A DNA stretch of 63,838 nucleotides, the filler included, from Collodictyon triciliatum (taxonomy: Eukaryota): assembly GCA_043381765.1 (NCBI GenBank). It is 5 parts of 5 records of this genome, joined end to end, with 100 filler letters (N's around TTAATTAATTAA, not from the genome) between each part and the next. Parts side by side here need not be neighbours in the genome. Positions count along the whole stretch, not along the records: positions 1 to 26,773 come from JBHJMP010000412.1; 4 more parts are not named here. One strand, 5' to 3'. Position numbers and translations under genes: made by a program. Of the stretch, positions 2,704 through 63,604 are shown in pieces. Position 1 is the first letter of the stretch. Each line of letters starts with the position of its first letter. The notes below the pieces were generated by a model that did no database searches, was not told the origin of the DNA, and saw only the letters and a program-made list of their open reading frames with translations.

Positions 2704-2719
2704 CCATCTTATTCACTAT
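2704..2719. repeat. 16-bp target-site duplication, left copy
   Basis: CCATCTTATTCACTAT, identical to 4514-4529; abuts the poly(A/T) tail. Confidence 0.9.
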
Positions 2720-4513
2720 TTTTTTTTTTTTTTGGTTTCTTTTCAACAGTTTATTGAGATAAAAACAAAGCCGAGGAAACCGCCTTCGCCTCTAGGACAA
2801 AAATGAGCTGTGGACAAGACAAAAGAAAGTACCGGATTGTGTGGTTGGAGATTTTGTGTTTTGGGTGGAAAGAAAAAGAAAAAGAAATAGAAAGGAGAGA
2901 AAGTGTTCTCACACGCAGACTATTCTACCCGAGGTGAATCAGCTCCAACGCGATTTCTGGTTGTATTCGAGACTGACAGAAGAGCGGATAAAGTTGTCGG
3001 GTCGATGAAAGTACGCACATGGCAGTTACTTCTCAAATCGATTCCGACGAGTCCTTTCAACCGTCTATCTCAGACAAGATTTACATCCTATTTCATTCCA
3101 CTGGATGAGTCTTTTGAGGGGACAACGGGTCACTTTCCTTGCGTTTCTTGCTGGGCGACTCTGACAAAAAGCGATACATCGTTGTTTGTATGGTATTACT
3201 GACAATGGCGCTTGACCGTCCCCTGGTTTCGGAACCATGCGTAGCTGGCAGTGGACTTTGCCTAACCGGAGTATGGCCACACGTTTGTGGTTTTAGAAAC
3301 ATACACTTGTTTGTTCGGACTGTCTTTGGTGTGTGAAGTTCCAAGCTCGGATTCGATTTGTGCTGTTTGTTCTTGCTCCTTGGTTCTCGGTGCGACAGGC
3401 TGGGGCAGGGTAAACGGACTATCTTTGGTGGGCGCTGGTTCTTGTGTTGCCTTCGATTTGGAGTATCCTTTCGGATAAGTAACGAAGACTGCCTTGTTGC
3501 CTCCTATGTTAACCATATTCACGTCTGTCTGAATGGGTAGTTTAAGGGGGGATTTCTTTCGGGGTTTGGAGATGCGCTGCTCTTGGGTCTTGCGATGTAC
3601 GGGCTTGTCCGGTGTTGGCGGTGGAGGGCTCAAATGCAAAGATTCTGAAGAGGAACCGAGATTTCCTTCCATGTCATCGTCGCTGTCGCTGTATGCGCGT
3701 ATATCTGCTGTGAGTCTTGCGGGCTCAGTTGTTGTCTGGCCTTGGCTTCCTTGACCCCGTTGCTGCTTGTCTGCTTGGCAGGTGTATTCTTTTGCGGGGC
3801 TTTTACTTGTCGTTCGTTATTCGCGGCTGGCGGACGCTCTTTGAGGATGCGCTTTGGACACTTTTTGCCCATAACCGTAAACTTTGCAGGGAGCTGGTTC
3901 TTGTGACAAAGAAGCTTCACCACGGCCGTGTCTGTGGATAAGCCTTTGTCCTTTTTGATCTCCGCGTGGGTCGGTCTGAACGGCTTCAGCTCCTCACGAA
4001 GGAGTTGCGGCCACACGTCCAGCGGTAGTTGGTAGAGCATCACCGAGGTCTCTGTTGGTTTACTTCTGCTGGAGCTGATCGTAATATCGATCAAACTTAC
4101 CTGCCTCAGTTCCAGAAGCTTTCGGGCGTTTTCTGCAGTGCGGAAGGCGATCAGGCAAAGGCCTTCGCTATACGGTAAGCGCAATCGGATGGACTCTTCC
4201 CAAAGTTTGTCCGCTTTCAAAAAGGAGGCGAGCGCATCGGTGAGCCTGCGGGTCTTGTTCTTGTTGTAAACGACTTGCTCGACCCCGTGCAAAAAATACT
4301 GTCCGATCAGACAAACTTGCAGGCAGCTTCCTTGCGCGGGTCTTCCTAGACTTACGTGCAACTCGGGGTTTTTCCGCGCCAGCGTTGGAACCAGAAGAAC
4401 TGGCTGCAACTTGCAAAGCCTTCGACGGGTCGCAGCTTGCGCCGATCTCCCCGTCTCGGCTTGTGTTTTCCATCAGGCGCGGGAAGCTTGATTGAAAATC
4501 AGGCGCGGGAACC
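2720..4513 (-). mobile_element. Non-autonomous ORF1-only non-LTR retroposon (HAL1-like), copy 1
   Basis: Flanked by the direct repeat CCATCTTATTCACTAT (2704-2719 and 4514-4529). On the minus strand AATAAA (2755-2750) is followed by a 15-nt poly(A) (T-run 2719-2733). It carries one long frameshifted ORF1-like reading frame and no EN or RT motifs. A homologous copy lies at 61840-63604. Confidence 0.8.
3093..4473 (-). pseudogene. LINE ORF1p-like (tandem RRM-type plus low-complexity tail) ORF with three frameshifts, ~460 codons
   Basis: ORF-track pieces 4168-4473, 3630-4409, 3262-3672 and 3093-3344 join at indels near 4293, 3700 and 3310. The core LIAFRTAENARKLL...TSVMLYQLPLDV..QLLREELKPF...TDTAVVKL....LPAKFTVMG resembles the L1/Tx1 ORF1 RRM pattern. 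Confidence 0.65.
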
Positions 4514-4529
4514 CCATCTTATTCACTAT
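4514..4529. repeat. 16-bp target-site duplication, right copy
   Basis: CCATCTTATTCACTAT, identical to 2704-2719; abuts the element 5' end. Confidence 0.9.
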
Positions 4530-6662
4530 ATATATCAGCGTCGCTGTAATTAACTTTCCTTTAATTACAATTAATATAATATACCTTATACGCTATGAAC
4601 ACAAAAAAATCATTCTTGATGCAACAAAAGTAACATGGAGATTAAAAAATCACTATCCTCGATGGATTATGTGATGCAATAATATTAATATATTCTGCCA
4701 TTTTAATATTTTATTCATAATTTTTTGATTATCTTGCACAATATTGCTGATATCGATGCATGTCATTCCTCACCAATTCACATCTATTTACATTTATTTG
4801 CATCTTTTTGATTGTTTCTCATCATTTCCACTTTACCCTCATCAATCTGCATACATTCTTATCAATCCACATTAATTACTTTATTCGCACTACATCCCAA
4901 TATTCCCCCATCTGCTTTCTATGTCATGTGCCTCTGTCTCTTGTTTTATTACCCTTGCTTCATTTGCTGCACTTCTTCGCTAGTTATCCTATGTGCTGTC
5001 TTGTGTCCCTCCCACGCCGTGCCATCCACCTACCATTCTTGTTAGTGACTGTTTGTTCTATAATAACACTCCAACTACCTGTTCTCCTTATCCCCTTCTC
5101 TCTATATACCCTCCCTCCACAAAAAAAAAAAAAAAAAATTGGCCCTAACCCTATAAAGCAAAGGTACATGATATTCATACTATGTTAGGTGCCCCTGAAT
5201 AACAAAACAAACAAATAAAACAACAAAACAAACAATAGGATAATATTGTCATTTTTTATTTAACAAAAATGAGGTATGCAAATCTTCGGAAAATCAATTT
5301 AAAATTAAACACCAATGCTCCTGATATACTTATTGGGAGAGAAAAAACAGCCGAGACAGGAGATAAATGGCTGAGCACAATAACACAACATATTGATAAG
5401 CAACAAATCATTCAAGAGCAGAGTATTTGATAATTAAAGCGGTAAATATATCTCAAGAAATGCACACAATGTTCTTTTATTTGGATTGATTTAATTCCTA
5501 CGTGCAGAGTTCAAATAATACCGGCATCAAAAAATGGCCCTGAAACTCATCTTGACTCCACTTGGGTTAACAAAGCTTGTCATTTTTATGTTAATGGCGA
5601 ATTATTTTTATTTTATTTATTTTTTTTTTTTGCATTAGGATACGTTTCCTTCGGGCAATCGGATTTACTCGAATAGGAACTAAAGCTTGGAGAAAATCGA
5701 ACTAAGAACAAAGGATGTATTTGATGACTTTATAGTTGGTCGCTGCTTATCATAATTTATTGAAAGGGCCACTAGAAAATCCATGGGGAGCTAGCATTCT
5801 CGTTTATTTGCGCATTTTTCTGTATTTTCAATATATTTATCTGCCATTAACTCTATTTTATGATTTTCCATAAGCATCTCGGCAGTAAGTCAGCTATTGA
5901 CGAGCAACTTGTCGAAGGGAACCTCATGGTTACTGTTTGTTAGTTTCTAAAATCGAATGCACAATACGAGGGCGTTATCAAGCCAATTTATTTCGATTGA
6001 TTGGCTTGCATCCTTTATACTCATACTCGAATGAAATACGGTTTACACATATGGGTGACTGGTATGATTAATATTACTTTTAGAGTTTGTTATCACTATT
6101 CACTAGCGAAAGATATCAACTAAAAATATCACTTGCCCTGGCTCCGATTTTCATTTCTTCATATTATTTTTTTTTATTGCTATCTTATTGCTTAATTCTT
6201 GTTTTTTGTATGAAGTCTTCCATGATTTTACTTAGTCTTTCAAGACCTTGGTCTAGAAGAAAAAAACTTTGTTATTCTCATTCCCACATGGATTCTGCTC
6301 TACAAAGTGCCGGATAAAAAAAAAAGGAAGAAAAAGCCAGAAGGCAAGCATTGACCGTCGTCCTTCACTACCCCAAACAAAGGCATGCAGGACTATTCCC
6401 AACCAGAATGGCAAACCAACAACTAGGACGCAGTGAAAACTGAATGCATACATTCGAAAGTAAACCCCCAAAGAAAAACCTCAGGAAAAACAGAGTGGAG
6501 ATATCTTTTTTTTTTGTCAGAGAATAAGAAAAAAGAAAAAAGAAGAAAAAGAAAAAAAAGAAGCAGAGCTAAGGTCGGCCAATCTCATTCACTCGACCAC
6601 GTTTGCAGAGGCCAACAAGAAATAATGCCCTGTAGGTTACTACGGAAGCCAAAGCCACCGAA

Positions 6663-11302: not shown

Positions 11303-13326
11303 CTAGCACTGGAAATAAAGCAGTGATAACGAGTTGGTCAGGGTGGCGTAACTAGCTGGTTGGCTGTGTGGGCAGCTTGATTTTTGGATAAGAAGAATAG
11401 AGAGCTGCTTTATGAGTACAGGCCATTCCGCCTCGATGGGCGCATCACCCGGGGTGTTGAAGTAAGCCCTGAGCTTGTTTTGTATATCTTTTATCGACTT
11501 GGAGTTATTGTATGCCCTCCAGTCTATGTGCCTCGCCTGCCATTCACAGCCACCGGCTGAATCGATGCTAGCCAGGATAGCACTGTGGTCGGACAGCGCA
11601 GAATAGACTGTTTTAAGTTTCTTGAACCACGCATGCAAGTCCCTTGAGCAGAGGAGGCGGTCGATTCTGCTCCACGTGAAGCCGCTTTTTGTATGTCTTA
11701 ACACGTTGCTCCTAGAGAGTGAGGATTGAGCGTCTTCCAAGGGTCTTGCAGCTTGTGCTTCATTGTCCAGTCGACGAAAGGTTTGTCACTGTGTGTCGAA
11801 GACCCAGACCATTCGGTGCTGGCATCCATAAGAGCGTTGAAGTCTCCACAGATGATGATACGTTTCGCAGACTCCATCTCCTTAGAGATAAGCTCATACT
11901 CGTGTATTCTAGTATTTGAACCTGCTGTTTGGGGCGACATGTATGTTGTCATTTTACGAGTGTCAGCTCCATCTATTTGGATATCGAGACTTATGCAGCG
12001 GCCAGGAATAATCTCTCTGAAGCGAGGATTGAGTTTGGCTATCCATTTCTTGCATAGAAACGCTACACCTGCGTGTCTCTGTTGATTATCGTCACAGGAC
12101 TACATTTGTGGACCTTTCCAAAGTTCATTGTTGGTTAGATTATCAGGGCTGAGCCATGTTTCTTAGAGATAGACGATGTCTGCATGAGAGAAAAGAGCAG
12201 TGTTTAGGGCCTCTTTTCTTTTATGGGGGTCTTTAATCCCCCTAACGCTCCACGACAGAACGTTAAAACGCATGAATAATCTACTGGTTTTTGGAGGCCG
12301 TAGCCCTCGGTGATTGGCCCTCTCCGCTGGAGCTGGGTTGCTCAGGGTGGGATGGTATACTCGAGTTATCCTTCATTTGGCCGGTGTTATAATTGCTCGC
12401 GGTTCGGCCAGAATTTGTCGGATGGTCTTGGACTTTGGGCTGCAACCCCTTTGTAGCTGGTGTGTTGGGAGATGCACTCTGTCGGTCACTAGCAACCCTC
12501 GGTTCCAATTTTTCCCCCTTATTCACGCGGTAGGCAGGGTCATCCATGTTTCCACTCTCATTATGATTTGCTTTCTGACTCTCTATATTAGGTGGTGTAC
12601 TTGATTGATTCATTCTCTTTTCCTCGGGCGAGGCTTTATCTTCGACGGTTTCGGTCTTTTTTTCGTGCGCCAGTGATTGCAGGATATGTAACCGGTGTTT
12701 TATATTCGCCTATCTTTCTTTTTCTTTTATTGGAAGGTGTTTCCCGCTGAGGAGTCGCAAGAGTTTCGACAGCAGGTCTGCTCCCATAAACAGTACTTGA
12801 GGAGTAATTTGTCCTTCCCAAACCTTCAATGTGCTCTCTTTCTTTGATTAGCGAGCTTGAAGCAGCATGTCCAGACAAATCGACCAGTAATTCGTCTGTA
12901 TTTTCTATATCCAAATCTTGACTTTGGGTCGCTTCATTATTAACCGCCTTGATTGTATTGAGCACTATGTCCGTGGGCTTCATGTCACGATTTCCCCCTC
13001 TTGTGGGGTTGCGATGTGTATCTCCCCACCTTTGGTCTTGTTGTTTGGTTCAAGACTGGTTTCGCGCTCGCGATTCATGAATGCTCGGCCTTGCTTCCAC
13101 ACTTTGATGGAATCCTGTTGCCGTGTAGCCCAAAGTGCGCGTGGTAGCTTTTCGTATGATGGTGGTTGGTTGGTTGGTTGGTAGTGGTCGGCTTGGTGGC
13201 AATTGTTTGATATAAGGGTCGTTTGCCCTTGTCTGTCGTTTCCTCCTTTCTTGGGGAGAGTCTACGGGATGTCGGTCTCTTTGAGGGCGCGAATCTCCAC
13301 AGGGTTGTGTACTTCTTGGATGGCAA
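11303..13326 (-). mobile_element. Degenerate L1/Tx1-like LINE fragment: ORF1 C-terminal part plus APE endonuclease of ORF2, no RT
   Basis: ORF1 ends with TAG at 12281; after a 7-nt spacer ORF2 starts with ATG at 12273: MRFNVLSWSVRGI..ADIVYL*ETW..HAGVAFL..PGRCI..IICGDFNA..LQDPWK..FTWSRIDRLL..SDHSAIL. These are APE endonuclease motifs, with two in-frame stops and a frameshift near 11700. Confidence 0.88.
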
Positions 13327-13682
13327 AAAGGGTGAATGTCTTTCTCGTTTTTTATTATTATTTACTTTTCTTTGTCAAAGGTCACGAGTGCACCGTTCTT
13401 GCCTATCGCTCCATACATGTATGTTTTGCCCAGAGTACGCAGAAGAACCGTTTTCGAATTATGGCAATATTCACTAGTACTGCTGATGAAAAAGGACCAA
13501 GTAGGCAGCGCATCTTATCGCCACATGCTTTATGTGCTGCATTTGCAATTCTTTGCTGGTCATAGAAACGAAATACATCGAAGGATAAGGAAGGAGAAAT
13601 AAAATCGAAAGAGTTCAAATGACATAACACGAAGGCTGAGAGCCACAGACACAGACACTGGCTGGGAAGGCAGGCAAAAGCC

Positions 13683-16600
13683 TCACGACTGCGTCTCTGT
13701 CATCTCCTGTTGACTTGCTGGCTGCTCCTGTTTGTGCTCACGCGACTCAACGAGCGTGTGGTTTTGAGCCTTGAGGGCTGCAAATAGGGAAGCTGAGAAC
13801 GAGGCAAGAGACGACGGAGTGCGTGGGTGAGTCTGTGCATCTACTCTGCCCTGGTCGTGGATGGTGACGGCCACGGAGCGGCTTTCTTCCTGTGTAGATG
13901 CGGGCTTTGGGGTTGGCGGGGGAGCATCGTTGCCTTGCGGATGAACTTGATTGCGGCCAACGGGCGGGCCTCCCGTGGCGGAAAATAAGGCCTGCAGGAT
14001 TTGAGATGATGTTCGGGGCCGCGAGACCGATTGTGAGCGCGGCTTTGTGCTGGAATCCTCTGCTGGGTTCAACAGGCCCTTTTCCATCATCTCCTGTCGC
14101 TGAAGCTCTTCTAGTCTTCTTTTCTTCCGGCGACGGAATGCGCGTTGGATAGCCAGTGCTGCATGTGAATGGGCAACCTTGTTTGGGGACAAAAAAAAAA
14201 GCTAGCTAAGTCTCAACTTATGTATGGAATACTTTTTCCTCTTTTTTTTTTTTTTGCATAGAAAATACTTCATACCATTACATAGTTATCAAATGTATGT
14301 CTTGTATATTATACCAATCCTTTCGAAGGCTTCAGCTTGGCGAGGTCTGGGAATGCTCGTCGATGCAGGTCTTCCATTTCGTCTCGTATTCTGGACTCAG
14401 GCAGTCTGGGTTATGGGAGTAGGATTTTCTGTGAATATACTATGAAAATAAGCAAAATGTGTGAACCGAGAATTGATTACTCGACTGAACCCAACACCCT
14501 TCGCGACAAGACCGAAATGACCTCGAAATAGTGTATCATCCCCTAATTGTGAATGCAGATAGTTCGATGTCATAACCACATATCAGTGATTTGAGAATTT
14601 AGCCATTATTCAGATGACAAAGATGAAGGCAGAAAGGAAAACGAATGCGTGTAATAGAAAACAATTATATATAAAGGAAAAATATAATAATTAAGAAGCA
14701 GTTTCTACCTGGTGCTCCGGTATATCAAGAGATGATATGAACTTCATCATGTCGATGCTATTCAAATCTGATATACGACGAAAATTAAAAGATACATATA
14801 ATTACATGGATGATGAAAGGACAAGCTACCTGCACCAAGTGGAGGTCCAATCATCCTCAAGAATTGTGATAACCTTTGCTAATATCAATAAGAGGATGGA
14901 AAATCACATAAGTCGGGATGCAAATGCAATTACACTGTCAAGCTATGTGATTGTGCATGTTGTGAATCTAGGATAGAATTACGTATTTCATGAGGTTCAC
15001 GTTCCCAGGGGCGGATAAGTAGGACCATATGATCACCACGCTTTATGTTGTATATAGTAATTTAGCATAGCTGGGCTTGATATCGCATAATAAATTTCTT
15101 TGGAAAAACTAATCGTATATGAAAAAGGAAGTCAGGCAATATCTAGGAATTCACTTCATGTCTGAATTTTACAACTTTCTATTGCACATGAAATTCGTAA
15201 ATTTGGCTCAAAAATCGTATAAAGTTTTACTCTGCGAGATACCCTTCAGGTATAGCTGTGTCCTCTTCATTCTTGGCTATGCTAAAATTCTCTAAAATGA
15301 CCGCTATAATACGATAGTTGTTCTATCAGCCATACTTCCATATGTAAAACGAATCATTTGATTTTCTAATTTATCCAGTTCAGTTTTTTTCTTTTTGTTT
15401 TTTGAGATTTTGGGCTATTGAGTTGTTCATGTATTGATGGCTCACCAGTGTAAATATTCAACATAATGAAGGATACGATGAACAAATAAAAGAAAAAGAA
15501 TGCATTTGCTGTTGCAGGTGAGCCACAATCATTTGCTGACCAGTCACAATCTGGAGGCCTTATCGAGCATCCCGCTTTTACGTTCGGCCAATCGTCAAAT
15601 GTCATGACCCTACAAGGCGATATAAAATTTAAACATGTTTTCATTGACATAATCTAAAAATCTAAATATGTAAGCTTATAGTTTGAAGAACGAGTCAAAA
15701 TATAGATAGGTAACTTTGACGTAGAGATGAAAGAAAAAGCTGAGTACCTGAAAAGAGTTAGAAAGGAAAGTGGAAATGTCGAAAAGTTTGAATGTTCATT
15801 CAAGCCATCCTCGGTCCAACGAATGTTCCCAAATAACGATGTGGCGAGACCAGCAAAGATAAATATTATGAGAAACAACACGGACGCGATTCGATACATG
15901 GAAGGGAGAGAATATCTAAACGGGTTTGAGCACTTTGTTAGAAAAAAGTATTAAACCAATTGTAAATAACTATACTTGTGATTATCTTCCATCTAGTTCG
16001 CATCGAACAACTCGGTTGTGCAGAAAAATTTTTTGCTCAATTTCAAAAAAAAAATACTTTATGGTCAAGAATATCTTCCGGATACTTTTCGACTCTCGCA
16101 TGATTCTCAAAACATTAATGAGTCTGAAGATTCTTATAATCCTAAAAATCGAAGTGTTCACTGCCAGACTTTTCCCAGTGATTGAAAGAGACGTGTCTAG
16201 GTTTTTCAGCAAGTATCGGGTAAGAAAAGTTGGCTGACGAATATATCAGGTTGGTTCGTGTAATGAAATTATTTGTGGAAATTTTAGGACATTTATGAAA
16301 GATTCATTTTTCATCAAGCTTACTGATAACTGATATAATCACAAGTGTAAAGTCTAGGCAATTCCATTTGCTCTTAAAATATTGTCTCTCGAGTGCAGTA
16401 AGTTTGATAATTGCTTCGGTGATGTATATGACAGTAAAACAAATGTCACTGGCAACTAAATAAATATTCATGTAAATTAAGGGGAAAGGACTCCTTTTTT
16501 TATTTCACTCAATAAAAGGCTGTTCGGTACCATTTAATTCATTTAAAATCTTCATCAGAAAAAAAACTTACAGAATGCCATAGTCCATGTGGGGTCGGGA

Positions 16601-23874: not shown

Positions 23875-24996
23875 TGTTGTTAAATCTATCAAAATGTGAA
23901 GACAGGAACTAAAATTAGACTAATAAGTTTTGTAGGATATTCTTGAACTGCGCAACCAAAGCCGCAAACTAGTTTCCCTTCAATCAGAATTATCTAGACT
24001 ACGGCGCTGAGGCGTAAACATTCAAGCCCTGTCAACCAGCAACATCACGAAATAGCTATGACAGTCATGAAAAAGCAAAAGTCGAAGCAGAAATGAGGAT
24101 ATAAATGCGCGAAGGACAAGAAATCGAATCAAAACACGAGCTGGAAACGATTCCACAAAGTCTGCCTCGCCATGAGTTCTGACTGCCATCTACTGATTCG
24201 CAAGGGCAGTTGATTCCCAAATGATCCAAAGATCAAGCAAACGATTGAGGTTAGTCAGCAGAAAATGCGGCTCTTTTTGCGTCCAAGCCATTCCATAGAT
24301 TTGCTCCCTTTTCATGCGCCCCAGGCAAAAAAAAAAAAAAATGGATGAATAGATAGCGCAAATAGTTGGCTGCTGGTTTGGAAGCAAGTCTTTGGTCTCC
24401 GACTTGAACCCACAAATGAGACCGAAAATAGTAATAGAATGGATAATATGCAACTAACATCCAAATTCAGGTTCTCTGACTAATAAATTCGTTCGTGGTA
24501 ATTTGCCGTTATTCTATAAGTGGAATATAATTTTATCTCATAAAATATAATCTAAAACTGGATGGGGTGCATTACTATTTCTATTTATACTAGAAATTAT
24601 AATTTTGACTGTGAGTTTGTGTGTTTATCAGGTACGCAAATGTTTTTTTTCACTTTTTTCACTTTTTTCACTTATTTATCTTTTTTCTCTTTTCTTTTCT
24701 TCATTTTTTTCTTTTTCTTTTCTTCATCTTTTTCCTTTTTCTTTTTTCTTTCTTCTTTTTTCTTTTTCTTTTTTCTTTTTCTTTTTCTTTTTTCTTTTTT
24801 CTTTTTCATTCTTCACTTTTACTGTTCATTCTTTTTTTTCTTTTTTCTTTTTTTCTTTTTTTCTTTTTTTTCTTTTTTTTCTTTTTTTTCTTTTTTTTCT
24901 TTCGAACATTACACTACGTCCTGCATATTATGGGGGCTATTGAAGCACGGGACATGTCGGACATACCCTTCGTAAACTGTTTGCTCCGTAGGATAT

Positions 24997-26773: not shown

Positions 26774-26873
26774 NNNNNNNNNNNNNNNNNNNNNNNNNNN
26801 NNNNNNNNNNNNNNNNNTTAATTAATTAANNNNNNNNNNNNNNNNNNNNNNNNNNNNNNNNNNNNNNNNNNNN
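26774..26873. other. Artificial contig-joining spacer
   Basis: 44 N + TTAATTAATTAA (stops in all six frames) + 44 N = 100 nt. Confidence 0.95.
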
Positions 26874-31841: not shown

Positions 31842-34800
31842 TTATGATGGCGGCACAGCGAGTGCACTGAGTGAGCCCACGAGTTCGTTCTCGTCGATGC
31901 CCTCGGACATCAGCATTGGCTGCAGCTCTGTTTCATGCGGCAACGATGTTAGCGATATACATATTAAAAGAAAAAGTCACAAAAAAAGCAGAATAAGAAA
32001 AGAAAATATAAGCCTGAACCGATCAAAGGGAAAAAATAGTAATTCTTGTTTATTTTTTTAAATAAAAAAAAAACTCACGAAGAATATCGATGAACTCTGA
32101 TATTTCCTCCAAAACAAAGACTTCCTCCTCCATCATCTTCAGGAAGGCCTTGAGGCGCTCTTGCATTTCTTGCTCTCCAGACACAAGCCTCTGCTTCAAC
32201 TCCACAACCCATGGCCTGTATATAATTCGTTACTTGGCAGTGGATATAAAGAAAAAGAAAAAGAAAAAGAAAAAGAAAAAGAAAAAGAAAAAGAAAAAGA
32301 AAAAGAAAAAGAAAAAGAAAAAGAAAAAGAAAAAGAAAAAGAAAANNNNNNNNNNNNNNNNNNNNNNNNNNNNNNNNNNNNNNNNNNNNNNNNNNNNNNN
32401 NNNNNNNNNNNNNNNNNNNNNNNNNNNNNNNNNNNNNNNNNNNNNAAACAAAGAAAACAAAGAAAACAAAGAAAACAAAGAAAACAAAGAAAACAAAGAA
32501 AACAAAGAAAACAAAGAAAACAAAGAAAACAAAGAAAACAAAAACAAAAACAAAAACAAAAACAAAAACAAAAACAAAAACAAAAACAAAAACAAAAAAA
32601 AAAGAAGAGAAAGAGAAACAGCGCAACTCACGTGGTTGCATCCGTGTCATTGATACTGCCTCTGGGCAGTCCGCTTTTGAAAATGTTTTGGAGCTCGTTG
32701 ACGATTGCAAACAAGACAAGCGCAGGACGAAGCCGCTGGCTGACTGGGAGAGCCGGGTCGAGTGGCTCTGTGAGTCGTGCAAGAATCAGCTGCTTGAACA
32801 AAGTGTAGCGATTCTGCTCCCAGTCGCTTTGCGTGTAGAGCAGCAGCGTGGCCACAAGCATGTAGCTGGCATTGTCGACCACGAGGGACGCATCGCGCCA
32901 CGAGCCGGTCGGGGCTGCGGTAAACTGGTTCAGAGCAGTCTGGAAAGAAGCCCGCGGGTTGGGCGGCTGGTCCATCAGAAAGAGGGCCATGTATATCATG
33001 TGCGGAACCATCGAGAGGTTGCTTTCGCTTCCGCCCAGCGAGTCGGTGGAGAACGACTCCTTGTTGGCCAGGCGCACGAGCAGCAGGCGCAGGTCGTGTG
33101 TCAGAATGCGGATGCGCGATGTGTTGGGCACCCGATATACGCCGCTGAGGTACTGCCAGTATCGGTCGACCTCGCTCGCATATGCGTCTGACGGGATTTC
33201 CGGCCCGCGGATAGGGAAGATGCTGTTGCAGGGCGACCCGGAGTTGCGTAGGGCGGCTCCGCCCCACTCGTCCATCGCATTGCGGCCCGTCTTTTTCACG
33301 CGCGTGTCGTTCTCGTGGCACTTGAAGTGGATGACTTTGAAGTATGTCACGGTGCAGATGCCCGACTCTTGCTTGCCTTTGGGCGGTGGCAGACCTGGAC
33401 AGGACACAGGAGAAAGGTGTTTATGTGGCATGATTTCACATTAAAAGATGTGGTCTTTCTTTTTTTTTTTTAATTGTACCAGTGCCGCTGTGAAGTTGAC
33501 CCGATATCTGGACTCGCTTGGAGTATGTGTAGAATCCAAGTGGCTGCTGCTTCTGCAAAGTGTATCCTTCGCGGCAGATGGCACATTGGTGGCCTTTTTC
33601 CTCCTCGATTTCCTCCGTCACCATAGTTGAGGCCGTGATGGATTCCAATGCCCTGTGGTGGTGGATGAGAAACTCGGCGCTGATTTATGGCTTGTATATT
33701 TTTCATTGCTTGGGTGATATGATGGAGTGCATGAAATAAGGTTTGGTATCCTACTGCACTCGCTTGCCTTTGGCCTTCTTCTTACGCTCTGCAACTATGT
33801 CATTTTGCTCCTTTTTGACATTGGCTGCGGCCTCTTCCTGTGTAGTGCAGATTGGTTTGAAAGCATATATGAGCAAAAGAGAGAATATGGCGAAAAACCA
33901 ATAAAAGGAAATAAAAGGAAATAAAAGGAAATAAAAGGAAATAAAAGGAAATAAAAGGAAATAAAAGGAAATAAAAGGAAATAAAAGGAAATAAAAGGAA
34001 ATAAAAGGAAATAATCNNNNNNNNNNNNNNNNNNNNNNNNNNNNNNNNNNNNNNNNNNNNNNNNNNNNNNNNNNNNNNNNNNNNNNNNNNNNNNNNNNNN
34101 NNNNNNNNNNNNNNNNAAAGCAAATAAAAGGAAAAAAAAGGAAATAAAAGGAAATAAAAGGAAATAAAAGGAAATAAAAGGAAATAAAAGGAAATAAAAG
34201 GAAATAAAAGGAAATAAAAGGAAATAAAAGGAAATAAAAGGAAATAAAAGGAAATAAAAGGAAATAAAAGGAAATAAAAGGAAATAATCGCATACGTTGC
34301 CTTCGCAGATAGCAGATAAACACATCCCGCTCATGGAGCCGATGTTTTTGCCACTGGGTATGGATTCAAGGCGACATAGCACTTTCACGATTCCGCTGGA
34401 CACAAGAAGAGACTGGCTTGGTGTATGCGAGCGAACAAGACCTTCATTGTTTATTTCAAGTTAAGTCAACCCCATATCAATTAAACAAATATATCTAAAA
34501 AGGAAGCATTATCATTTCAAATAAAAAAATTACATAAAAGAAAGGGCATATGAAAAAAATACCAGTAAGATACTCCAGCAAAAGTGTGACGGAATGCTTT
34601 TGCAGAGACTCTGTCCATCTGCAATTTTCAAGAAAAGGAGAATAAGGGTTAATTACAGTTTTGTTTGTAACATAAATGATTCATATATTTATGAAAATGG
34701 TTAAATGTTGGATATAATGATTCCTCACTGTTTTGAGTTTTTGTCCAGGGACGGCGGGAAGCTTTGTAGAAGATAATCAGCAATCTTTTTAGTGATTCCT

Positions 34801-37800
34801 CTGCGAAGGAAATAATCGCGCATCAGATTTCCGTTGTGGTTCACTGGAATCATCGATAAGGCCATCTTTAAGGCATTCAAATAGTGATTCTTATCCCTAC
34901 AATATCAACATAAATAAGGCGTAATTATTTAATATATTACGGTTACTCCAATTCTTACCTAAATAAAACTAGCACAAAAACTAACACAAAAACTAACACA
35001 AAAACAAAAACAAGAACAAGAACAAAAACAAAAACAAAAACAAAAACACAATACCAACATAAGACCAGATCAATTGAAAAAAAAATGATGAAAATCATAA
35101 GGTGAAATATTTACGCATCAGGGGTCTGTGATGCATCAAAATTTTCAAAGTCAAAGTAGGGTTCAAAAAAGTCGGCCAAAATCTTGAAAAGTTGCTCATT
35201 TCCATAAGTGAGGAAGGGTAGTACACGAGACAACACATTAATAATTTTAGTGTTTTTGCGTAGTTCGGGGTTACGTAATTTCTCCAAAAACATTGGGAGA
35301 TGACTTAAATCGGTCGCAATTTGTTCCTCGTCGTGCATTTCATCTATTTTAAGACATTTTTGGATTTGTCCAAATTATGTTATTTCATATATTCAGAAAA
35401 ACAAAATCGAAAACAAAATCGAAAACAAAATCGAAAACAAAATCGAAAACAAAATCGAAAACAAAAATAGGACAAAGAATAAAGAATAAAGAATAAAGAA
35501 TAAAGAATAAAGAATAAAGAATAAAGAATAAAGAATAAAGAATAAAGAATAAAGAATAAAGAATAAAGAATAAAGAATACCTTCTCCCTTACGAACAAGA
35601 TTGGCCTCTGCAACCAAGACAGATATCAGCTCGATGATATTCTGAGACAAGGCAGAAATCGAGTCTGATTGGAACACTTGTTCCAGCTTGACGAACAGAA
35701 TGGATACCCCACGAAGTTTCAGCATAGCGAGGCGGTTCTGCTTCAGTTTTCCACAGTAGTACAATATTGTCAGCAGCAGAGTGACAGTTTCGCGATGCAG
35801 CTCAAAGTTGTTCACTTGCTTTAGCCAGTTCAAAAGGAATTCAATTCCATTTGCCTATGTATTTTTTAAATCAAAATAAATAAAAACGATTCCTGAATTA
35901 TATGAAAAGAGGTTATTATGAAAAGCTGCGGGAAAGATAAAAGTAAAAAAATAAAAAAAATTAAATACAACGCAATTGTTGAGAGGTATTGATCCCAAAA
36001 TAAAGCGTATGAACGTTGTGAAAATTACGTCGCGCAAAACGGATGTAATCGCAAATTCTTCTTCGGGGTCTCTTTCCACATCCTGTTCCTCGTCGAGGGT
36101 CTCGACAATTGTCTCTCTGGCCTCTCCTTCCAATCCTTGCAGGCGATACACAACAACCATGGGTGGTAACGAGGCTCTGTCCTTCTCCGGTCTCGATGGG
36201 AGCCACACTTTTTCGTAGACCAGCTTGATACTTAGCCCAAGGTTGATAATTTTGTTATCTACAAGCAGTTCAATGCCGTTGTCGCTCTGGAAGAATATTA
36301 ATTAGAATGAATACAAACATTATGAACAGCAATAAGGAAGTATACACGTCATTTTTTTTTTGAATTTTAGATGTTTATAGGAATTAATTTATACATCTAG
36401 GAAAGAGCCCATCCCGAGGTCGACACATATCTTATTCTTTACATTTCTCATTAGAGGACCCACATCCCTTGATGAATAGGGATTGCGATTCATAGAGCCT
36501 GGGATGAATTCCTCCTGAGACGATGCCTTGTTGAGAACCAATTGATAGACAGCCTCTACTTTCACAGGACGTATTGTGATACTCATTTGCTCCAAAATGA
36601 AAAGACCAGTGGAGCCCTTCCAGTGTTTGTGGAGTGCCGACGAGCATGTGGTCATATATCTTATTTTATCTTGCTCGGAGTCACCAAAGCATTTCTTAAG
36701 TAGTTTGAGCAAGAGGTCACTGGCATCGTCCGTCAATTTGGTTTTTTGGACAACTAAGCCTCTCAGATGAAGATAGCTATCGAGTACAGTCTCCATCAGA
36801 TTTCCTTGCTTGAACTTGGTGAGGGCCAATGGATTCTCTACAAACAGGTTCATCAACTGAACTAGATTCTTGAGGACAAATCCTTGGGACATATCCGTAG
36901 AGAACGAGTTTTCAAGGAAGCTGATACGGTTCGTCTCGATGCCGATGGCTGTCAGCAGTTTCGGGATGATTCCCTATATGAAAGAGTGTATCAGTTCATA
37001 CTTCTTCCAATTTAAAGCAAGGTTAAATTCCTCACGAAAATACATACAATAAAGAACGTGTGGATGTATAATTCACATTAAGGGCATATATTCGTCCGCT
37101 TTTTCTTTTTCTTTTTTTACTTTTTACCTTGATGATCAAATAAGCTCGGTACTCCTCGCTGAGCAGTTGGTTGTAGAGTTCAAAGAATTCGCTTGATGCT
37201 TCTCCCGCCTGGGATGTGTGCTCAAGCATAAGTGTCAACAAATCAACAAAGCGCAACTTTCTAATCGCACTTCCTTTACAGAGTGTTTCAATCAAGGATT
37301 TGGTCTCCTGGCGAACCAACTGCGAGACAGGGTTAAGTAATAGCTTTCTAATCCATGAGCCTTGAATGAAGGGCGGCATTACATGCTCTTCTTTCAATAA
37401 TCCGGCCTTCTGTTTCCATACTCGCACACATTTTCTGACCATGTATCGAATTGATGGGTCCATCACAACGTCTCCCTTCTTGTCAGTGGATGTGGTTTGC
37501 TTGATGGTTTTGTTATCCGTGAATAGGTTGCTGGACCACTCCGCGAATTTGGGCTCGCTTTCCTTCCATTCGGAGTAAGAAAGCTTGGGGCAACGGTCAA
37601 GAGCCCTTTCAACCTCAGCAGGAAATTTAGGGCTGCTTGAAATGACACAAAGCTGTGATATAACTCGAAGGCAAGGAAGTGTAATGGCCTCCGTGATGAG
37701 AGGAGAAAGATATCCTTTGGAGATGGCAGAAAAGAATATCTCAATGACAAGTTTCAATCTACTTTCCCACACGCTATCTTCAATCATGCACAATTCGGAA

Positions 37801-40800
37801 AGGAGATGTACTTCGTTGGATATGTGCCAGACAGATTCTGTGTTTCGAGAATCCAAAACACAGCCGAGTACTTTTTCCTTCAAAATCTGATTCACTTGCT
37901 TGGTTGCTTCTGGATTATCCTTTATGAGGGATGCAATGACAGAGCGCGTATCAGCGCGAGTCTGCTTTGTTCCTTGGTGGAGTGTGACAGTGAGCAACTC
38001 CTCCAAAACGCCTTTTTGAATGAGGTCGTCTCTGATGACAGAGTTCTTTGAGATGGACTCCAAGAGTTTTAATGAGCGTGTAATAAAGTGAATGGCACAT
38101 CCAAAACATTTGCCCGATGGTCTTTCAGCGGACGAACTTGACGGGCCTTGAAACCCACCACCTTGGCTCTGCGAGTAGCGCAGTAATTCTCGACGGAAGG
38201 ATGTCAACATTTGGACACTGCGGCTAAGTGCCTCAAAGTTTGGCTTGCAGTCTCGGTGATAGAGAGACCCCAGCGCTTGGATTTTCATATTGACCTTGTT
38301 GTTGGAGCTGCTGGACATTCCACGGCTCGCAGCGGCAGATATTATGTCTGTTATTTCTCGAGATGAATCGTCATCCTGATCGAGAATACGATGGATAATC
38401 TTTTGCAGCGGCTTCTTGAAGTTGACTAATTGCTGGTAGCTTTTATGGGCATTTTTTGTTTCCTTCTCGATGTTTTCCAGACAAAGCTTTCGGTCCTCCG
38501 CGCTAAAGATTCGGTCAGCACCAAGGTTGCGTTTAGCAAAGAACGAAAATTCAAATTTCCCATATCTGCAAAATCCGCACTGGACACAGAGGAATGCCCG
38601 TAGATCTTCGTAGTGAATGGCGCGGCACTGGCGGCACTGGAAAGCATTCTCTCCACAGGAACACATGCCGTGTTTTTCTGTGACTGTTCTACTGCAACTA
38701 GGACATTGAATCTTTTCAAAGGCAGCCGATGGACTTTCGTAAAACTCTGTGAATTCCAATTTGATGTTCGAAGCCACAATCGGTATGGGGAATTCGGCTT
38801 TAGCCTCGTTCTTTCCTTGCTGCACATGAATCGGAGCACCGCGTTTCCATAGTGCGTGGTTGTTCTTCAGTTCGGCCATGTCGGCACTTGACGTAGAGTA
38901 AAAGACAGACACTAGCTTGACACTCTTTGACTTTCTTGATTCGCTGCTAATATTGAGAGATACAGCTCGAAGTACATAGCTGCCATTAAACTTTATGATT
39001 TGCGAGTTGTGCATATACTTTACCTCAGACTTAATGGTATCCACTCGAATAGGATGGAACGGTACTTCAGGGTCGTTGCAAACTAAGCACGGGTCACTCT
39101 CGAGATAGAATCCGTCCACATCAATGTACTGGCCCAATGCCTTGTACATGAAGGAGTTTGGGTGGTTGACCAATAGGGTATTTTGCTCCCGAAGAATGTC
39201 TTTGAGGGAATCCACAACACCGCTGATGGCTTTTGTGTCCTTTCCACCGTAGATATGCATCATTTGTTCGTAGCAGTCGAAAAAGTCAGTTGCATTTTTA
39301 CCATATGAAGGCATGGAAGACAGTTTTGAGGTTAAAATTGACAAGATATCCTTCTGTTTCTCTGGATACAGCGAAAAAACAGCCAATACAAGCTTGCGGG
39401 TCTCTGTCCTCACAGCAGCGATGTTGACGCCAAGGAGGTAAGAGTCGATGAATTTGGAAAGCTGGCTATCTGAAATCGTCCATAAAACAGCAGGGTCTGC
39501 ATCAGAATCCCTCCTTCTCGATGGTTTTGGATCGGATGAGTTCTTTCTGCCTGTAATCTCTTCGCTTGCTTTTGACGCAGTCGGTTGGGATGAACTGGCA
39601 TCCTTTGGAGTAGATTGTGCATGCGAAGGTGCAGTCGAGTCCTTTTTGGTCTCTTCAGTACTAGCTGCTTCTGGGGTGCCAGCAAAGGCTTCCAGCAGCA
39701 GCTTGAGAACGCCAAGGATAGACTCTTCCACCATAAAGTCCGATATATGGAACAAAAAGGTCAGAACAGAAGGGTCTTGATGGCAGATGAGCTTCCAGTT
39801 ACGTGGTCTGCTTTGTGCTACTTTGAGAAGCTGATTGATTGCGTACAACAATTTGTGGCTGTGCTCAAAAGACAGGCTGTACATACCTCCTAATTTAAGT
39901 TGAGGAGCAATCTCTTTGATTTGTGAGAGATAAAACTTCATCACGCCACAATCACGCACCTCGTAGTATTTGCTCTTCGACTTGTAAATAGCACGTATTA
40001 CTTTCTTTGCAAGATTCTTGACAAAGAACGTCTGTGGGAGCGCTATTAGCTGGCACAGGAGTTTCACAAAGGTTGGCAGGTTCTCGTCGTCCATGTACGA
40101 GTCATCAACAGTCTTTTTCGCTCGAATCGTGTTGTAGTAGAACATAATCAGTATGTCGAGCAGCAGCTTCCGGTAATCCGAGAAGGGGTCGGGTGTGGCG
40201 CTGAGGACCAGGTCGGTCAGGAATGGCTCATATGTTCTCTTGAAAGAGTACTGAGGCACAAGAAGTAGGCTATCCGACTGCGACGAGGCATTTTCGGTGT
40301 TGCTCAGAACGGTGGACTGTTTCATTGAAGAATAAAAAAGGGTCAGTCTTTCTAGAGAGGCCACGACCAACGGGCCCAACTTCTGTTCGAGTATAAAGCT
40401 GGCCACTTCACCAGCAGAATGAAGAGTCGCTGCCTGTTGAAATGGCGATGTTAGAGACTCTACCACTTCAGCCGATTTCTTTTCCCTAACAGGTACCAGA
40501 TGCAAAAACTGCATAGACATCATGTCGCACTCCAGAAGGGCACTTCGGTTGGGTGAGAGTGAAAATATGGGACTGGATGCGTCTGGGGAGACGGTTGTGA
40601 TACATTTTTTGATAGACTCTGTGTCGAGCTTTCCTGATGTAATGAGGCTGAGCAAAATCTGGAGGTATGGCAGTGTATAGAAGCCCCCCTTTGATCTTTT
40701 CTCCTTAAATGACTCTAGCAGTAGATCAACAAATTGCTTTGTCGGGTAGGAGCTGGTGCCCACACTGTCATCGAGACTCATCCGGATGGCCTCTTGGAGC

Positions 40801-42190
40801 TCCACATCGATCATTTTCTCGCCCATGGAGTCTGCGCTAGGTCCATCTGCCAAAGAAGTGACAGCGATTTCATCACTCATGGGAATATCCTCGATGAGAA
40901 GTCTCTCCATGGAATGGTCACTGCGATGTTTTGTTCCTGTGAAGTCGGTCAGGTTTTGGTGGCAATCTTCGCACAGGTCAAAGTCCCCACAGACCAGACA
41001 ATGCCACCTGGCTTCTGTGATGGGCGTGCGTTTGCAGCCGTCGCAGTAGTATTGATAAGCTGGGCTGGATGTGCTGGCTATATCATTAACCACTTTATGG
41101 AAGACGCCGAAATAGTTGATTATGGCGGAAGTAGAGTAAACGCGAATGGCCTCGATGGGAGATTCAACCAGACTGATGATGTTTTTGATGCATTCTTGTA
41201 TGGTGCCCGGTGAGTTGCTCGCCAAAGATATTTGGGCAACAAGTATCAAGACAGTTCCTTGGACAATCGTGGACAAGTGTGGTGATTCACAAAGGTCTTC
41301 GTCAACGGACGACTGGAAAAGCCTCCAAAGACGGGAACTGATGGAGCTCTCACTCTTGATAAAGTTGTGGAATGTGGAAGGAGAGTAGGTCACGATGTCA
41401 ATCATGTTTTCATACGCCTGCACAAGGTGTGATATGGACAGGTGACCGTCAGAAGTGCTCATCAGCTTGGTACGAAGTGAATCCAGGAAGAGTGAATCTC
41501 GAGTCTGTCATTTATACAGAAAAAAATTAATTGACAGTTTAGTTAAATAATTTGGCAAATCGTCCAAACGGGGGGGAAACAAAAATGACGGATTTTTTTT
41601 TAACTGAGTTGGAACGCATCCTCAAACCTTGAAAAACTCTTCACGGTCGACAGTAATTTTTGACAATACTATATTTGCGTTGCGGAGTAGAGAAGGAGCA
41701 GAAGGTAGTGTATTCAGAACGGGAATCAAAGAGATTATGCTTGCTTTCAGATTATCCTTGACAATCACCGCAGTTTGTGATGGTTGGTTGTCTTCCTTGG
41801 CGATCAAATTCTTGATTCCAGCAAGACATGAAGTAATGATTTTCTCCTTTGCAAGCTTCGGGCTCTTTGACCAGCTCGAGTCCAGTATCAGAGGTCTTTG
41901 TGATTTTGAATCATCTGAATGTGTTTAAATTTTGATTATAATCATCATAAAAAAGTCTGCTGATAAAAGAGTAATTATTTTTTGTTTTTTTGTTTTTTAA
42001 AAAAAGTTCGACTACGATTGAAGGAGAAAAAGTATATTATGCAATAATATTTTTATGTCTATTTTTCTATACCTCCGGCTGTATTGGCTAAAGATTCAGC
42101 TTCGAATTCAGACTTTGAGATTGCATACACACGAATGCCACAACATCCAGGTTTATCCGCTGCACGCCCAAGATTGAACGAAAAGAATCC
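31842..42190 (-). CDS. UBR4: E3/E4 ubiquitin ligase UBR4 (BIG/Pushover/p600), C-terminal portion; 5' end lost at the contig end
   Basis: NHPNS..Y..L....DGFYLESDPCLVCNDPE; Cys-rich CPSCSR....HGMCSCGENAFQCRQCRAIHY; QEEFIPGSMNRNPYSS..VGPLMRNVKNKIC; PMVVVYRLQGLEGEARE; hemiRING CAICREGY...TVTYFKVIHFKCH; FSTDSLGGSESN. Stop TAA at 31842. Confidence 0.96.
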
Positions 42191-42373: not shown

Positions 42374-42473
42374 NNNNNNNNNNNNNNNNNNNNNNNNNNN
42401 NNNNNNNNNNNNNNNNNTTAATTAATTAANNNNNNNNNNNNNNNNNNNNNNNNNNNNNNNNNNNNNNNNNNNN
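42374..42473. other. Artificial contig-joining spacer
   Basis: 44 N + TTAATTAATTAA + 44 N. Confidence 0.95.
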
Positions 42474-42701: not shown

Positions 42702-46656
<3,955 letters not shown>

Positions 46657-48039: not shown

Positions 48040-48139
48040 NNNNNNNNNNNNNNNNNNNNNNNNNNNNNNNNNNNNNNNNNNNNTTAATTAATTAANNNNN
48101 NNNNNNNNNNNNNNNNNNNNNNNNNNNNNNNNNNNNNNN
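48040..48139. other. Artificial contig-joining spacer
   Basis: 44 N + TTAATTAATTAA + 44 N. Confidence 0.95.
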
Positions 48140-59883: not shown

Positions 59884-59983
59884 NNNNNNNNNNNNNNNNN
59901 NNNNNNNNNNNNNNNNNNNNNNNNNNNTTAATTAATTAANNNNNNNNNNNNNNNNNNNNNNNNNNNNNNNNNNNNNNNNNNNN
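59884..59983. other. Artificial contig-joining spacer
   Basis: 44 N + TTAATTAATTAA + 44 N, flanked by (AG)n and (TATG)n microsatellites. Confidence 0.95.
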
Positions 59984-61636: not shown

Positions 61637-61839
61637 CTACAGTATTATCCATTCTTTTCCTGAATACCATATCCCTTCTATTCTCTTATCCTTTAGGACT
61701 GAAGTTACAGAAAAGCATTGACAACTAAGCCATCCATTTTGTTTAAAATGATTCAATAAAAGTAAAAATAGAAAGTTATACTATTTTTGTTATTTACTTG
61801 TATTTATTTGTTTTCTTAATCTTGGGTATTCATGAACTG

Positions 61840-63604
61840 CCCGCGCCTGATGGAAAACACGAGCCGAGACGGAGAGATCGGCGCAAGACTCGACCCGTCG
61901 AAGGCTTTGCAAGTTGCAGCCAGTTCTTTTGGTTCCAACGCTGGTGCGAAAAACCCCGAGTTGCACGTAAGTCTAGGAAGACCCGTGCAAGGAAGTTGCC
62001 TGCAAGTCTGTCTGAGCGGAAAGGATTTTTGCACGGGGTCGGGCAAGTCGTTTACAACAAGAACAAGGCCCGCAGACTAACAGATGCGCTCGCCTCCTTC
62101 TTGAAAGCGAACAAACTTTGGGAAGAGTCCATCCAATTGCGCTTACCGGACAGCGAAGACCTTTGCTTGATCGCCTTCCGCACTGCAGAGAACGCCCGAA
62201 AGCTTCTGGAGCTGAAGCAGGTAAGTTTTGATCGATATCATGATCAGCTTCAGCAGAAGTAAACCAACAGAGACCTCGGTGATGCTCTACCAACTACCGC
62301 TGGACGTGTGGCCGCAACTTATTCGTGAGGAGTTGAAGGCGTTCAGACCGACCCACGTGGAGATCAAAAAGGACAAAGGCTTCTTCACAGACACGGCTGT
62401 GGTGAAGCTTCTTTGTCACAAGAACCAGCTCCCTGCAAAGTTTGCAGTCATGGGCAAAAAGTGTCCAAAGCGCATCCCCAAAGAGCGTCCGCCAGCCGCG
62501 AACAACGAACGAAAAGTAAAACCCCGCAAAAGAATACACCCGCCAAGCAGACAAGCAGCAACGGGGTCAAGGAAGCCAAGGCCAGACAACAACAGAGTCC
62601 ACAAGACTCACAGCAGATACGCGCATACAGCGACAGCGACGATGACATGGAAGGAAATCTCGGTTCCTCTTCAGAATCCTCGCACTCGAGCCCTCCACCG
62701 CCGACACCGGACAAGCCCGTACATCGCAAGACCCAAGAGCAGCGCATCTCCAAACCCCGAAAGAAATCCCCTTAAACTACCCATTCAGACTGACGTGAAT
62801 ATGGTTAACATAGGAGACATCAAGGCAGTCTTCGTTATATATCCGAAATGATACTCCAAATCGAAGGCAACACAAGAACCAGCGCCCACCAAAGATAGTC
62901 CGTTTATCCTGCCTAGCCCGTCGCACCGAGAACCAAGGAGCAAGAGCAAACAGCACAAGTCGAATCCAAGCTTGGAACTCCACACACCAAAGACAGTCCG
63001 AGCAAGCAGGAGCGTATGTTTCTAAAACCACAAACGCGTATCCATACTCTGGTTAAGCAAAGTCCACTGCCGGCTACACATGGTTCCGAAACCAGGGGAC
63101 TGTCAAGCGCCACTTCCGATAATACCAGATAAACAACGATGTATCGCTTTTTGTCAGAGTCGCCCAGCAAGAAACGCAAGGAAAGTGACCCGTTGTCCCC
63201 TCAAAAGACTCATCCTGTGGAATGAAATAGGATGTAAACCTTGTCTGAGATAGATGGTTGAAAGGACTCGTCGGAATCGATTTTCGAAGTAATTGCCATG
63301 TGCGTACTTTCATCGACCCGACAACTTTATCCGCTCTTCTGTCAGTCTCGAATACAACCAGAAATCGCGTTGGAGCTGATTCACCTCGGGTAGAATAGTC
63401 TGCGTGTGAGAACACTTTCTCTCCTTTCTTTTTTCTTTTCTTTTTCTTTTTCTTTTTCTTTTTCTTTTTCTTTCCACCCAAAACACAAAAACTCCAACCA
63501 CACATTCTGGGTTTTCCACTGTCTTGTCCACAGCTCATTTCTTGTCCTAGAGGCGAAGGCGGTTTCCTCGGCTTTGTTTTCTCTCAATAAACTGTTGAAA
63601 AGAA
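61840..63604 (+). mobile_element. Non-autonomous ORF1-only retroposon (HAL1-like), copy 2, degenerate
   Basis: Collinear with the reverse complement of ~2737-4483, from CCCGCGCCTGATGG (ATG 61850) through the ORF stop (63223-63225) to AATAAACTGTTGAAAAGAA (63586-63604). It has several frameshifts and a TGA at 62849; no clear poly(A) or TSD. Confidence 0.8.

Follow-up and report, generated by a model that had tools for sequence, protein, structure and literature searches.

A decayed, ORF2-less retroposon copy with poly(A) tail and target-site duplication, probably one of a LINE-dependent, protein-coding family

Among the elements closest to the one reported here, HAL1 of mammals 'encodes only ORF1p' and depends on the ORF2p of a long interspersed nuclear element (LINE), as put in a section of PMC5753468; TRE5-A.2 of Dictyostelium has the structure AB-ORF1-BC and is mobilised in trans by the ORF2p of TRE5-A.1, according to a portion of PMC3159450; and HeT-A of Drosophila has a gag open reading frame (ORF) but 'no pol ORF', in the words of an excerpt of PMC5443660. 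An ORF1-only retroposon in a protist is not new in kind; HAL1, TRE5-A.2 and HeT-A are already known. Here, I describe a unit on the minus strand, at positions 2720 to 4513, of a window of 63,838 nucleotides (nt), that is, the whole stretch of DNA that was analysed, consisting of five joined contigs of the assembly GCA_043381765.1 (recorded as Collodictyon triciliatum). The unit, henceforth copy 1, is rather probably a dead copy of a multi-copy, non-autonomous, LINE-dependent and protein-coding family of retroposons without ORF2. Its parts, including the 3' untranslated region (UTR), are as follows.

2720..4513, minus strand: retroposon copy 1, full length and decayed, 1,794 nt including the tail
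4514..4529, minus strand: target-site duplication on the 5' side of the element, reading ATAGTGAATAAGATGG on the element strand
2704..2719, minus strand: target-site duplication on the 3' side of the element, an exact 16-nt repeat
2720..2733, minus strand: poly(A) tail of 14 A, or 15 with base 2719
2734..3092, minus strand: 3' UTR, about 359 nt long; it includes a (CTTTTT)n microsatellite (about 2862-2900) and AATAAA (2755-2750)
4472..4511, minus strand: 5' terminal region, in which a 14-nt word, TTCCCGCGCCTGAT as read along the element, occurs as two direct repeats (repeat search)

Both ends of copy 1 are abutted by the exact 16-nt direct repeat CCATCTTATTCACTAT (2704-2719 and 4514-4529), which, with up to two mismatches allowed, occurs in two places in the window, against 0.07 by chance and two or more places in 0 of 100 shuffles. 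At the 3' end, AATAAA (2755-2750) is followed by 16 nt and then by 14-15 A (2733-2720), base 2719 being assignable to the poly(A) tail or to the duplication. As a control, a repeated word of at least 11 bases was sought within 8 kb upstream of each of the 29 runs of at least 10 A/T bases in the window, and it was found at the tail of copy 1 only. The GC content of the unit is 0.50, versus 0.31-0.34 in its flanks. Because of the poly(A) tail and the 16-nt duplication, copy 1 is recognised as inserted by target-primed reverse transcription of a polyadenylated RNA; the bounding 16-bp repeat, the AATAAA plus poly(A) ending and the mode of insertion drawn from these two hallmarks, all put forward in the initial annotation, are borne out, with the element on the minus strand.

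The two 14-nt units of the 5' terminal region lie at 4498-4511 and 4472-4485, and the motif CCCGCGCCTGAT near 4513 is part of this doubled repeat. The region may serve as an internal promoter, or else as 5' UTR; trypanosome elements have a 77-nt internal promoter, as described in part of PMC1874656.

A structured LINE-recognition signal at the 3' end was considered and rejected, since the RNA fold there has a z of -0.91, with 31 of 200 shuffles folding equally well, and no Rfam family matched at E up to 1. Other A runs of the window, at 24327-24341 (15 nt) and 5121-5138 (18 nt), have no repeated word of at least 11 bases within 8 kb upstream; the former comes after a GC-rich stretch and may represent the tail of a further retroposed unit.

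The family has further members. A second copy, noticed earlier on another contig, is present:

61837..63604, plus strand: retroposon copy 2, older and more decayed, on a different contig, with a single unit of the 5' motif

Copy 2 is 92.1% identical to copy 1 over 1,778 alignment columns and ends 3 nt short of the tail site of copy 1. Around it, a weak gapped match, in which about 8 of 9 aligned bases agree and 2 nt are gapped, was seen by eye but not accepted as a duplication. The window thus holds two copies in about 63 kb over five joined contigs, the joints being identical spacers, N44-TTAATTAATTAA-N44, at 26774-26873, 42374-42473, 48040-48139 and 59884-59983; because these spacers join contigs artificially, and copy 1 lies in the first contig, the two copies need not be neighbours in the genome.

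Three more loci, L001, L002 and L003, came from a search of metagenome contigs, the last two being partial. All three stop short of the 3' end. L001 (2,415 nt) starts with 727 nt of unrelated AT-rich sequence and enters the element at the CCCGCGCCTGAT motif, which is doubled there as in copy 1. The homology of copy 1 with copy 2 and with L001 begins at CCCGCGCCTGAT, and with copy 2 it extends up to the tail region. All three copies that reach the 5' end (3/3) begin at this motif, in flanks unrelated to one another; therefore the three loci, which are independent copies, have one common 5' end.

These boundaries also bear on a history without retroposition, in which a gene family would have been dispersed by duplication at the DNA level, the poly(A)-like run and the flanking repeat of copy 1 being coincidental. 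Copy 2, with neither tail nor duplication, would suit it, but the homology breaks off precisely at the tail on one side and at the 5' motif on the other, the flanks being unrelated at three loci, the 16-nt repeat abuts both ends exactly, which is unexpected by chance (0.07), and the tail lies 16 nt past AATAAA; I regard such a history as exceedingly improbable.

The coding part was delimited from a shared frame, defined by aligning copy 1, copy 2, L001, L002 and L003; the majority frame of the five aligned copies is open for 459 codons. In the lines below, the ORF is placed on copy 1 by three-frame translation and by tblastn with P0011, an intact homologue, and the state of each copy is given against the shared frame.

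3093..4473, minus strand: ancestral 459-codon ORF, ATG at 4473-4471 and TGA at 3095-3093
Copy 1: 457 codons covered, three frameshifting indels (+1, +2, -2), no in-frame stops
Copy 2: 455 codons covered, five frameshifting indels, three in-frame stops
L001: 450 codons covered, one frameshifting indel, no in-frame stops, one 24-nt in-frame deletion
L002: 262 codons covered, no frameshifting indels, no in-frame stops
L003: 323 codons covered, one frameshifting indel, two in-frame stops

The ORF is broken in 4 of the 5 DNA copies. The frameshifts of copy 1 lie near 4291 (+1), 3700 (+2) and 3307 (-2) and leave it with longest ATG-initiated ORFs of 136, 136 and 101 amino acids (aa) in three frames. 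From these counts of indels and stops against the shared frame, the ORF of about 460 codons, which the initial annotation read in the unit, is therefore an ancestral state and not something that the window encodes: it is open in neither copy 1 nor copy 2, and it stands as the ancestral 459-codon frame and in the intact P0011.

Pairwise identity among the five copies is 93.4-97.2%. In the ORF, 129 of 1,352 columns vary; in the UTR, 43 of 300 do. Of the variable ORF sites, 115 are private to one copy and 14 are shared, the private ones being spread over the codon positions as 30/38/47, a distribution close to that of neutral decay following insertion. The copies have thus decayed around an open ancestral frame. 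The length of the (CTTTTT)n stretch in the 3' UTR also varies among them. The 24-nt deletion of L001, at 781-800, falls in the N-terminal disordered region, where it may reflect either a tolerated change of length or decay.

Intact versions exist. A protein search with the longest frame of copy 1 returned 5 clusters with 19 sequences (JGI/IMG, ENA, NCBI, Logan); P0011, of 465 aa (459 from the ATG of the element), is intact and lies on a contig of 1,777 nt, about the length of the whole unit, and intact versions of 459-465 aa are present in freshwater metagenome contigs. Decayed relatives, P0020 (84%) and P0023 (E 5.7e-4), point to older insertions. Several members of the family are already annotated as 'hypothetical protein' in JGI/IMG.

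Of 24 public runs listed, 20, from 17 studies and mostly from freshwater or lake-water metagenomes, hold 20-32% of the sampled 31-mers; by my own arithmetic, a share of about 0.3 would be expected for a copy some 3.5% off the centre of the family. In one DNA metagenome, 29 contig pieces fall within 2900-4501, of which 3, 15, 9 and 2 are in the identity classes of, respectively, at least 99%, 95-99%, 90-95% and less than 90%. In three of the 29 the match gives way to foreign sequence (at 4285, 4357 and 4391), as expected for copies truncated at their 5' side, and neither flank of copy 1 is covered, which would fit a high copy number of the element or other strains, contig depth in such runs not being a measure of copy number.

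Intact versions also occur in RNA libraries. Six runs are recorded as RNA (20-29% of the sampled words), and one metatranscriptome run gave a contig of 1,643 nt over 2900-4501 which lacks all three frameshifts of copy 1, exactly these indels setting the two apart, and in which no splice joint was found. Because an RNA library can contain DNA, transcription of intact versions is likely but not proven. A stretch near 4060-4095 of the ORF that resembles a mini-intron (GTAAGT...CAG) was considered and rejected: copy 1 reads through it in frame and, because the RNA-library contig shows no joint there, it is not spliced.

In all five DNA copies, which cover the stop codon, and in the 1,643-nt contig, the ORF runs into the common 3' UTR and no second ORF follows; continuation into an ORF2 was seen in none of them. 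Pfam has no match in any frame of copy 1 or copy 2, endonuclease and reverse transcriptase domains included. The two corresponding proposals of the initial annotation, that the unit lacks both enzymes and that the family is ORF2-less, are thereby upheld.

The absence of ORF2 could have arisen as in a true HAL1-type derivative, that is, by deletion of ORF2 from an autonomous LINE with this ORF1 and these termini, which would be a special case of the retroposon family favoured here. Such an origin would agree with the order of short 5' UTR, ORF, UTR and poly(A) and with the probable two RRM-like domains, which suit ORF1 proteins as characterised in part of PMC3905857, with the arisal of both HAL1 and TRE5-A.2 by deletion of ORF2, and, as leads only, with ESM-Atlas neighbours of the protein (0.87-0.88) that have zf-CCHC or two ZCCHC3 RNA-binding domains. 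Yet no LINE of this kind was seen, neither any of the five DNA copies nor the RNA contig continues into ORF2, no domain-bearing protein longer than 459 aa turned up among 1.84 billion cluster representatives, and neither CCHC nor an L1-type ORF1 match was found; I consider this origin unlikely.

The protein itself is conserved in its core:

3816..4298, minus strand: conserved protein core, 161 aa in copy 1, probably two consecutive RRM-like beta-alpha-beta-beta-alpha-beta halves, and no zinc knuckle

Between P0011 and P0003 (459 aa), conservation is limited to residues about 60-225, which came out as 64% identical in the first search; neither the basic N-terminus (RKSRKTRARK) nor the C-terminal half, rich in S/P/K/Q, is conserved. 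P0021 (450 aa) is about 30% identical in the core and is built alike, with a disordered head, the core and a long tail of low complexity. Because the core is kept in P0003 and P0021 and the tails are not, selection appears to act on the protein. A profile search against the 1.84 billion representatives gave six proteins at E <=0.001, all of 459 aa or fewer, and a second, word-based search with a wider alignment gave 9 proteins at E up to 0.01 and no new lineage; the relatives come from about four lineages only.

Judging from models, the conserved core of 165 aa is probably made of two RRM-like domains (RNA recognition motifs), because of the order of secondary structures in the AlphaFold2 (AF2) models, the RRM rows returned by Foldseek and the presence of RNP-like motifs. 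Both AF2 models show, with low confidence, helix-strand-strand-helix and then strand-helix-strand-strand. Of the best 15 Foldseek rows, 14 are RRM, mostly tandem, HuR coming first (E 0.019), then Pub1, U2AF65 and nucleolin; some of these rows are assigned to RRM proteins by title, others by the identity of the protein. By eye, against the RRM consensus, VFLHGV / EGLCLIAF and VMLYQLP / GFFTDTAVVKLL resemble RNP2/RNP1 pairs. L1 ORF1p is absent from the Foldseek and VIA lists, which carries no weight either way. Another ESM-Atlas neighbour, again only a lead, is an unnamed and mostly arthropod cluster (0.90, 176 shared features). Many cellular proteins carry RRM-like domains, and two of them do not single out ORF1 proteins. 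Of the proposed RNA-binding likeness to ORF1 proteins and their RRMs, what remains is that tandem RRM proteins come first in Foldseek, with poor models as queries; a sequence match in Pfam or PDB is missing.

In the mechanism that I favour, RNA polymerase II would transcribe a master copy, the promoter lying within the element or at its short 5' end. The protein of 459 aa, with its basic N-terminus, two probable RRM-like domains and long disordered S/P/K/Q-rich tail, would bind the mRNA that encodes it, in the manner of LINE ORF1 proteins, and the resulting ribonucleoprotein with its poly(A) RNA would be copied into the genome in trans by the endonuclease and reverse transcriptase of an autonomous LINE. 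The element would therefore work like HAL1, TRE5-A.2 or HeT-A. Its ORF may have begun as a LINE ORF1 or as a captured cellular gene for an RNA-binding protein; the interpretation in the initial annotation is probably right on mechanism and unproven on descent.

Tail, duplication and decay would equally be left by processed pseudogenes, in this case of a highly expressed host gene, intronless or poor in introns, for a tandem-RRM RNA-binding protein. The intact copies would then be the gene itself, the mRNA of which LINE machinery repeatedly retroposes, and the protein would have no role in the spread. The lack of homology to LINE ORF1p or to any transposon family is in line with this, as is the fact that P0003 and P0021, of equal length and architecture, are single sequences in other lineages, as expected of a conserved gene; moreover, copy 2, without a tail and homologous from CCCGCGCCTGAT to 3 nt before the tail of copy 1, looks like a source locus, and the GC content of the ORF (0.48-0.56) falls in the range of host exons (0.32-0.585). 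However, copy 2 is itself dead, with its five frameshifts and three stops. The density is high, with two copies per about 63 kb and many variants within single metagenomes, and the ages of the copies span from about 97% identity down to the far weaker similarity of P0023 (E 5.7e-4). The unit has no gaps and the RNA contig no joint, whereas the neighbouring UBR4 gene (see below) is interrupted by intron-like gaps of about 60-90 nt; and the GC content of the 3' UTR (0.42) exceeds that of two such UBR4 gaps (0.22-0.31) and of the element flanks (0.31-0.34). With no partner LINE found, a pseudogene origin is the main rival, and I hold it to be somewhat unlikely.

The retroposon family with a role for its own protein has several points to answer. 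Copy 2 lacks a poly(A) tail, and no target-site duplication around it is convincing. For each of the distant homologues, P0003 and P0021, there is one sequence on one contig, which would also suit an ordinary gene. No autonomous LINE with a common ORF, 5' end or 3' end was found in the window; the nearest thing to a LINE that it contains is the following.

About 11330-12273, minus strand: probable remnant of an APE-type LINE endonuclease (Pfam Exo_endo_phos_2, E 9.5e-6; Exo_endo_phos, E 5e-5)

Both matches lie under the curated cut-offs of Pfam (25.9 vs 27.4 bits and 23.6 vs 24.5 bits), and the remnant has no similarity to the termini of the element or to its ORF (best other tblastn E 0.06); it is a possible source of the endonuclease and reverse transcriptase.

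The protein adds to these points. Pfam, at E up to 10, returns nothing in P0011, P0003, P0021, P0020 and P0016, no L1-type domain being recognised, and kinship to LINE ORF1p was detected neither by Pfam, nor by the sequence search of PDB, nor by the profile search of 1.84 billion proteins. CCHC patterns, strict or loose, number zero in P0011, P0003, P0021, P0013 and P0001. The two AF2 models are poor (mean pLDDT 38.8 and 45.3, with 62-80 in the first half of the core), Foldseek, with a poor model as query, gave no match at E <=0.001, and the VIA-align Z of up to 6.5 to ferredoxin-like (ACT, RRM) domains lies inside the stated background.

Along the same line, RRM_1 of Pfam is not matched by proteins of the family, no PDB chain was retrieved by sequence profile at E up to 10, P0022 has a single chance-level Pfam row (TPR_ESP1, E 0.11), and P0011, P0003, P0021, P0013 and P0001 contain 3-4 Cys each.

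The comparison with the described systems follows from these features. The element resembles HAL1 in being non-autonomous and in the order of ORF, UTR and poly(A) with target-site duplications (here in copy 1), but HAL1 is a derivative of L1 with an L1-type ORF1p, whereas the protein of the element matches neither L1 ORF1p nor any Pfam family; in addition, the element has no known parent LINE and its host is not, plausibly, an animal. The features of an L1-type ORF1 are a coiled coil, an L1 RRM and a CTD, under the Pfam name Transposase_22. Because the L1-type ORF1 feature was sought by sequence and not found, the element is not a member of HAL1, and the label 'HAL1-like' of the initial annotation, if read as descent from L1 ORF1, finds no support in the Pfam, PDB and 1.84-billion-protein searches.

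TRE5-A.2 differs in being an obvious deletion derivative that has modules in common with TRE5-A.1 and targets tRNA genes, and in needing a structured 3' C-module; the 3' end of the element has no significant fold and a plain poly(A). HeT-A is likewise ORF2-less and its lineage is long-lived, but its Gag has CCHC knuckles and it is confined to telomeres, whereas the element lacks CCHC and its insertions, rather than forming arrays, sit in ordinary AT-rich sequence. In ORF1 proteins the RNA-binding core is usually made of 'one or two RRM domains', as stated in a passage of PMC3905857, and the core of the element, which in models looks like two RRM-like domains, would resemble the Jockey-like ones in this respect; the CCHC knuckles that define the latter, directly after the RRMs, are absent here, as is any match at the sequence level, and because of the missing CCHC the protein is not a Jockey-like ORF1p. 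With processed pseudogenes the element shares the poly(A) tail, the target-site duplication, the lack of introns and the neutral decay of copies; it differs in its many copies of varied age, in their common CCCGCGCCTGAT start and in the intact ORF kept in the source lineage. No parent gene was identified, and the copies and the RNA contig are colinear without joints.

No description of this retroposon family was found in the literature, Repbase lying outside the search. What is new here is a protein of no known family, with relatives in other lineages that keep the same architecture, and the fact that no parent LINE is in sight. Only a few families of ORF1-only retroposons are on record, each with an obvious parent LINE. 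They are of interest since in them an RNA-binding protein alone can secure for its RNA a privileged access to a foreign reverse transcriptase; the present family could test whether cis-acting packaging of RNA suffices for the long-term survival of a non-autonomous element, and it could supply a new class of ORF1-like proteins. On the practical side, gene finders will call this repeat family 'hypothetical protein'.

A bolder and doubtful extension is that the family is an old, self-sustaining parasite of LINEs, the distinct tandem-RRM ORF of which, possibly a captured cellular gene, has stayed without ORF2 across deep divergence. If true, it would represent a third and stable lifestyle, intermediate between short interspersed nuclear elements (SINEs) and LINEs; HAL1, by contrast, arises again and again and dies out.

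The remaining content of the window concerns the host. Its most informative gene is

32631-41507, minus strand: gene for an E3 ligase of the BIG/UBR4 type, one exon of which spans 1,491 aa and includes a ZZ finger

A ZZ finger is also found in the plant and protist forms of the protein. This exon is best matched by plant BIG, which has the same set of ZZ and UBR4 (30-36%); UBR4 of Hydra, without ZZ, stands at 25%; in ESM-Atlas its neighbours are clusters labelled as chordate, whereas the direct search puts plant BIG first. Because the exon with its ZZ finger is closest to plant BIG, a host that is not an animal, but a protist or an alga, is plausible from sequence, and to this extent the protist genome assumed at the outset is retained; the host would be a freshwater eukaryote of AT-rich genome. 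The UBR4 gene is interrupted by gaps of about 60-90 nt, read as introns. Other genes of the window comprise ion-channel exons, a kinase, an ERV/ERGIC protein and cNMP-binding and GRAM domains; these ordinary genes, too, seem to be interrupted by short gaps that I interpret as introns.

The LINE remnant lies in a GC-rich block (11330-14200, minus strand) with an endonuclease-like frame from near 12273, broken ORFs before it and no reverse transcriptase after it; the block may be either a LINE deleted at its 3' side or another ORF2-defective derivative.

Finally, long simple repeats at which assembly halts seem to be unusually abundant in this genome. All four contig spacers have microsatellites on both sides, e.g. 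(GTTTTT)n, (GAAAA)n, (CTCTTT)n, (AG)n and (GTAT)n, and of the flanks of the 100-N gaps at 10740, 32346, 34017, 44323 and 55374, 9 of 10 are microsatellite, the exception lying downstream of 44323-44422; the repeats at spacers and gaps are penta- to nonanucleotide or shorter. A sixth gap, at 61102-61220, has non-repeat flanks.

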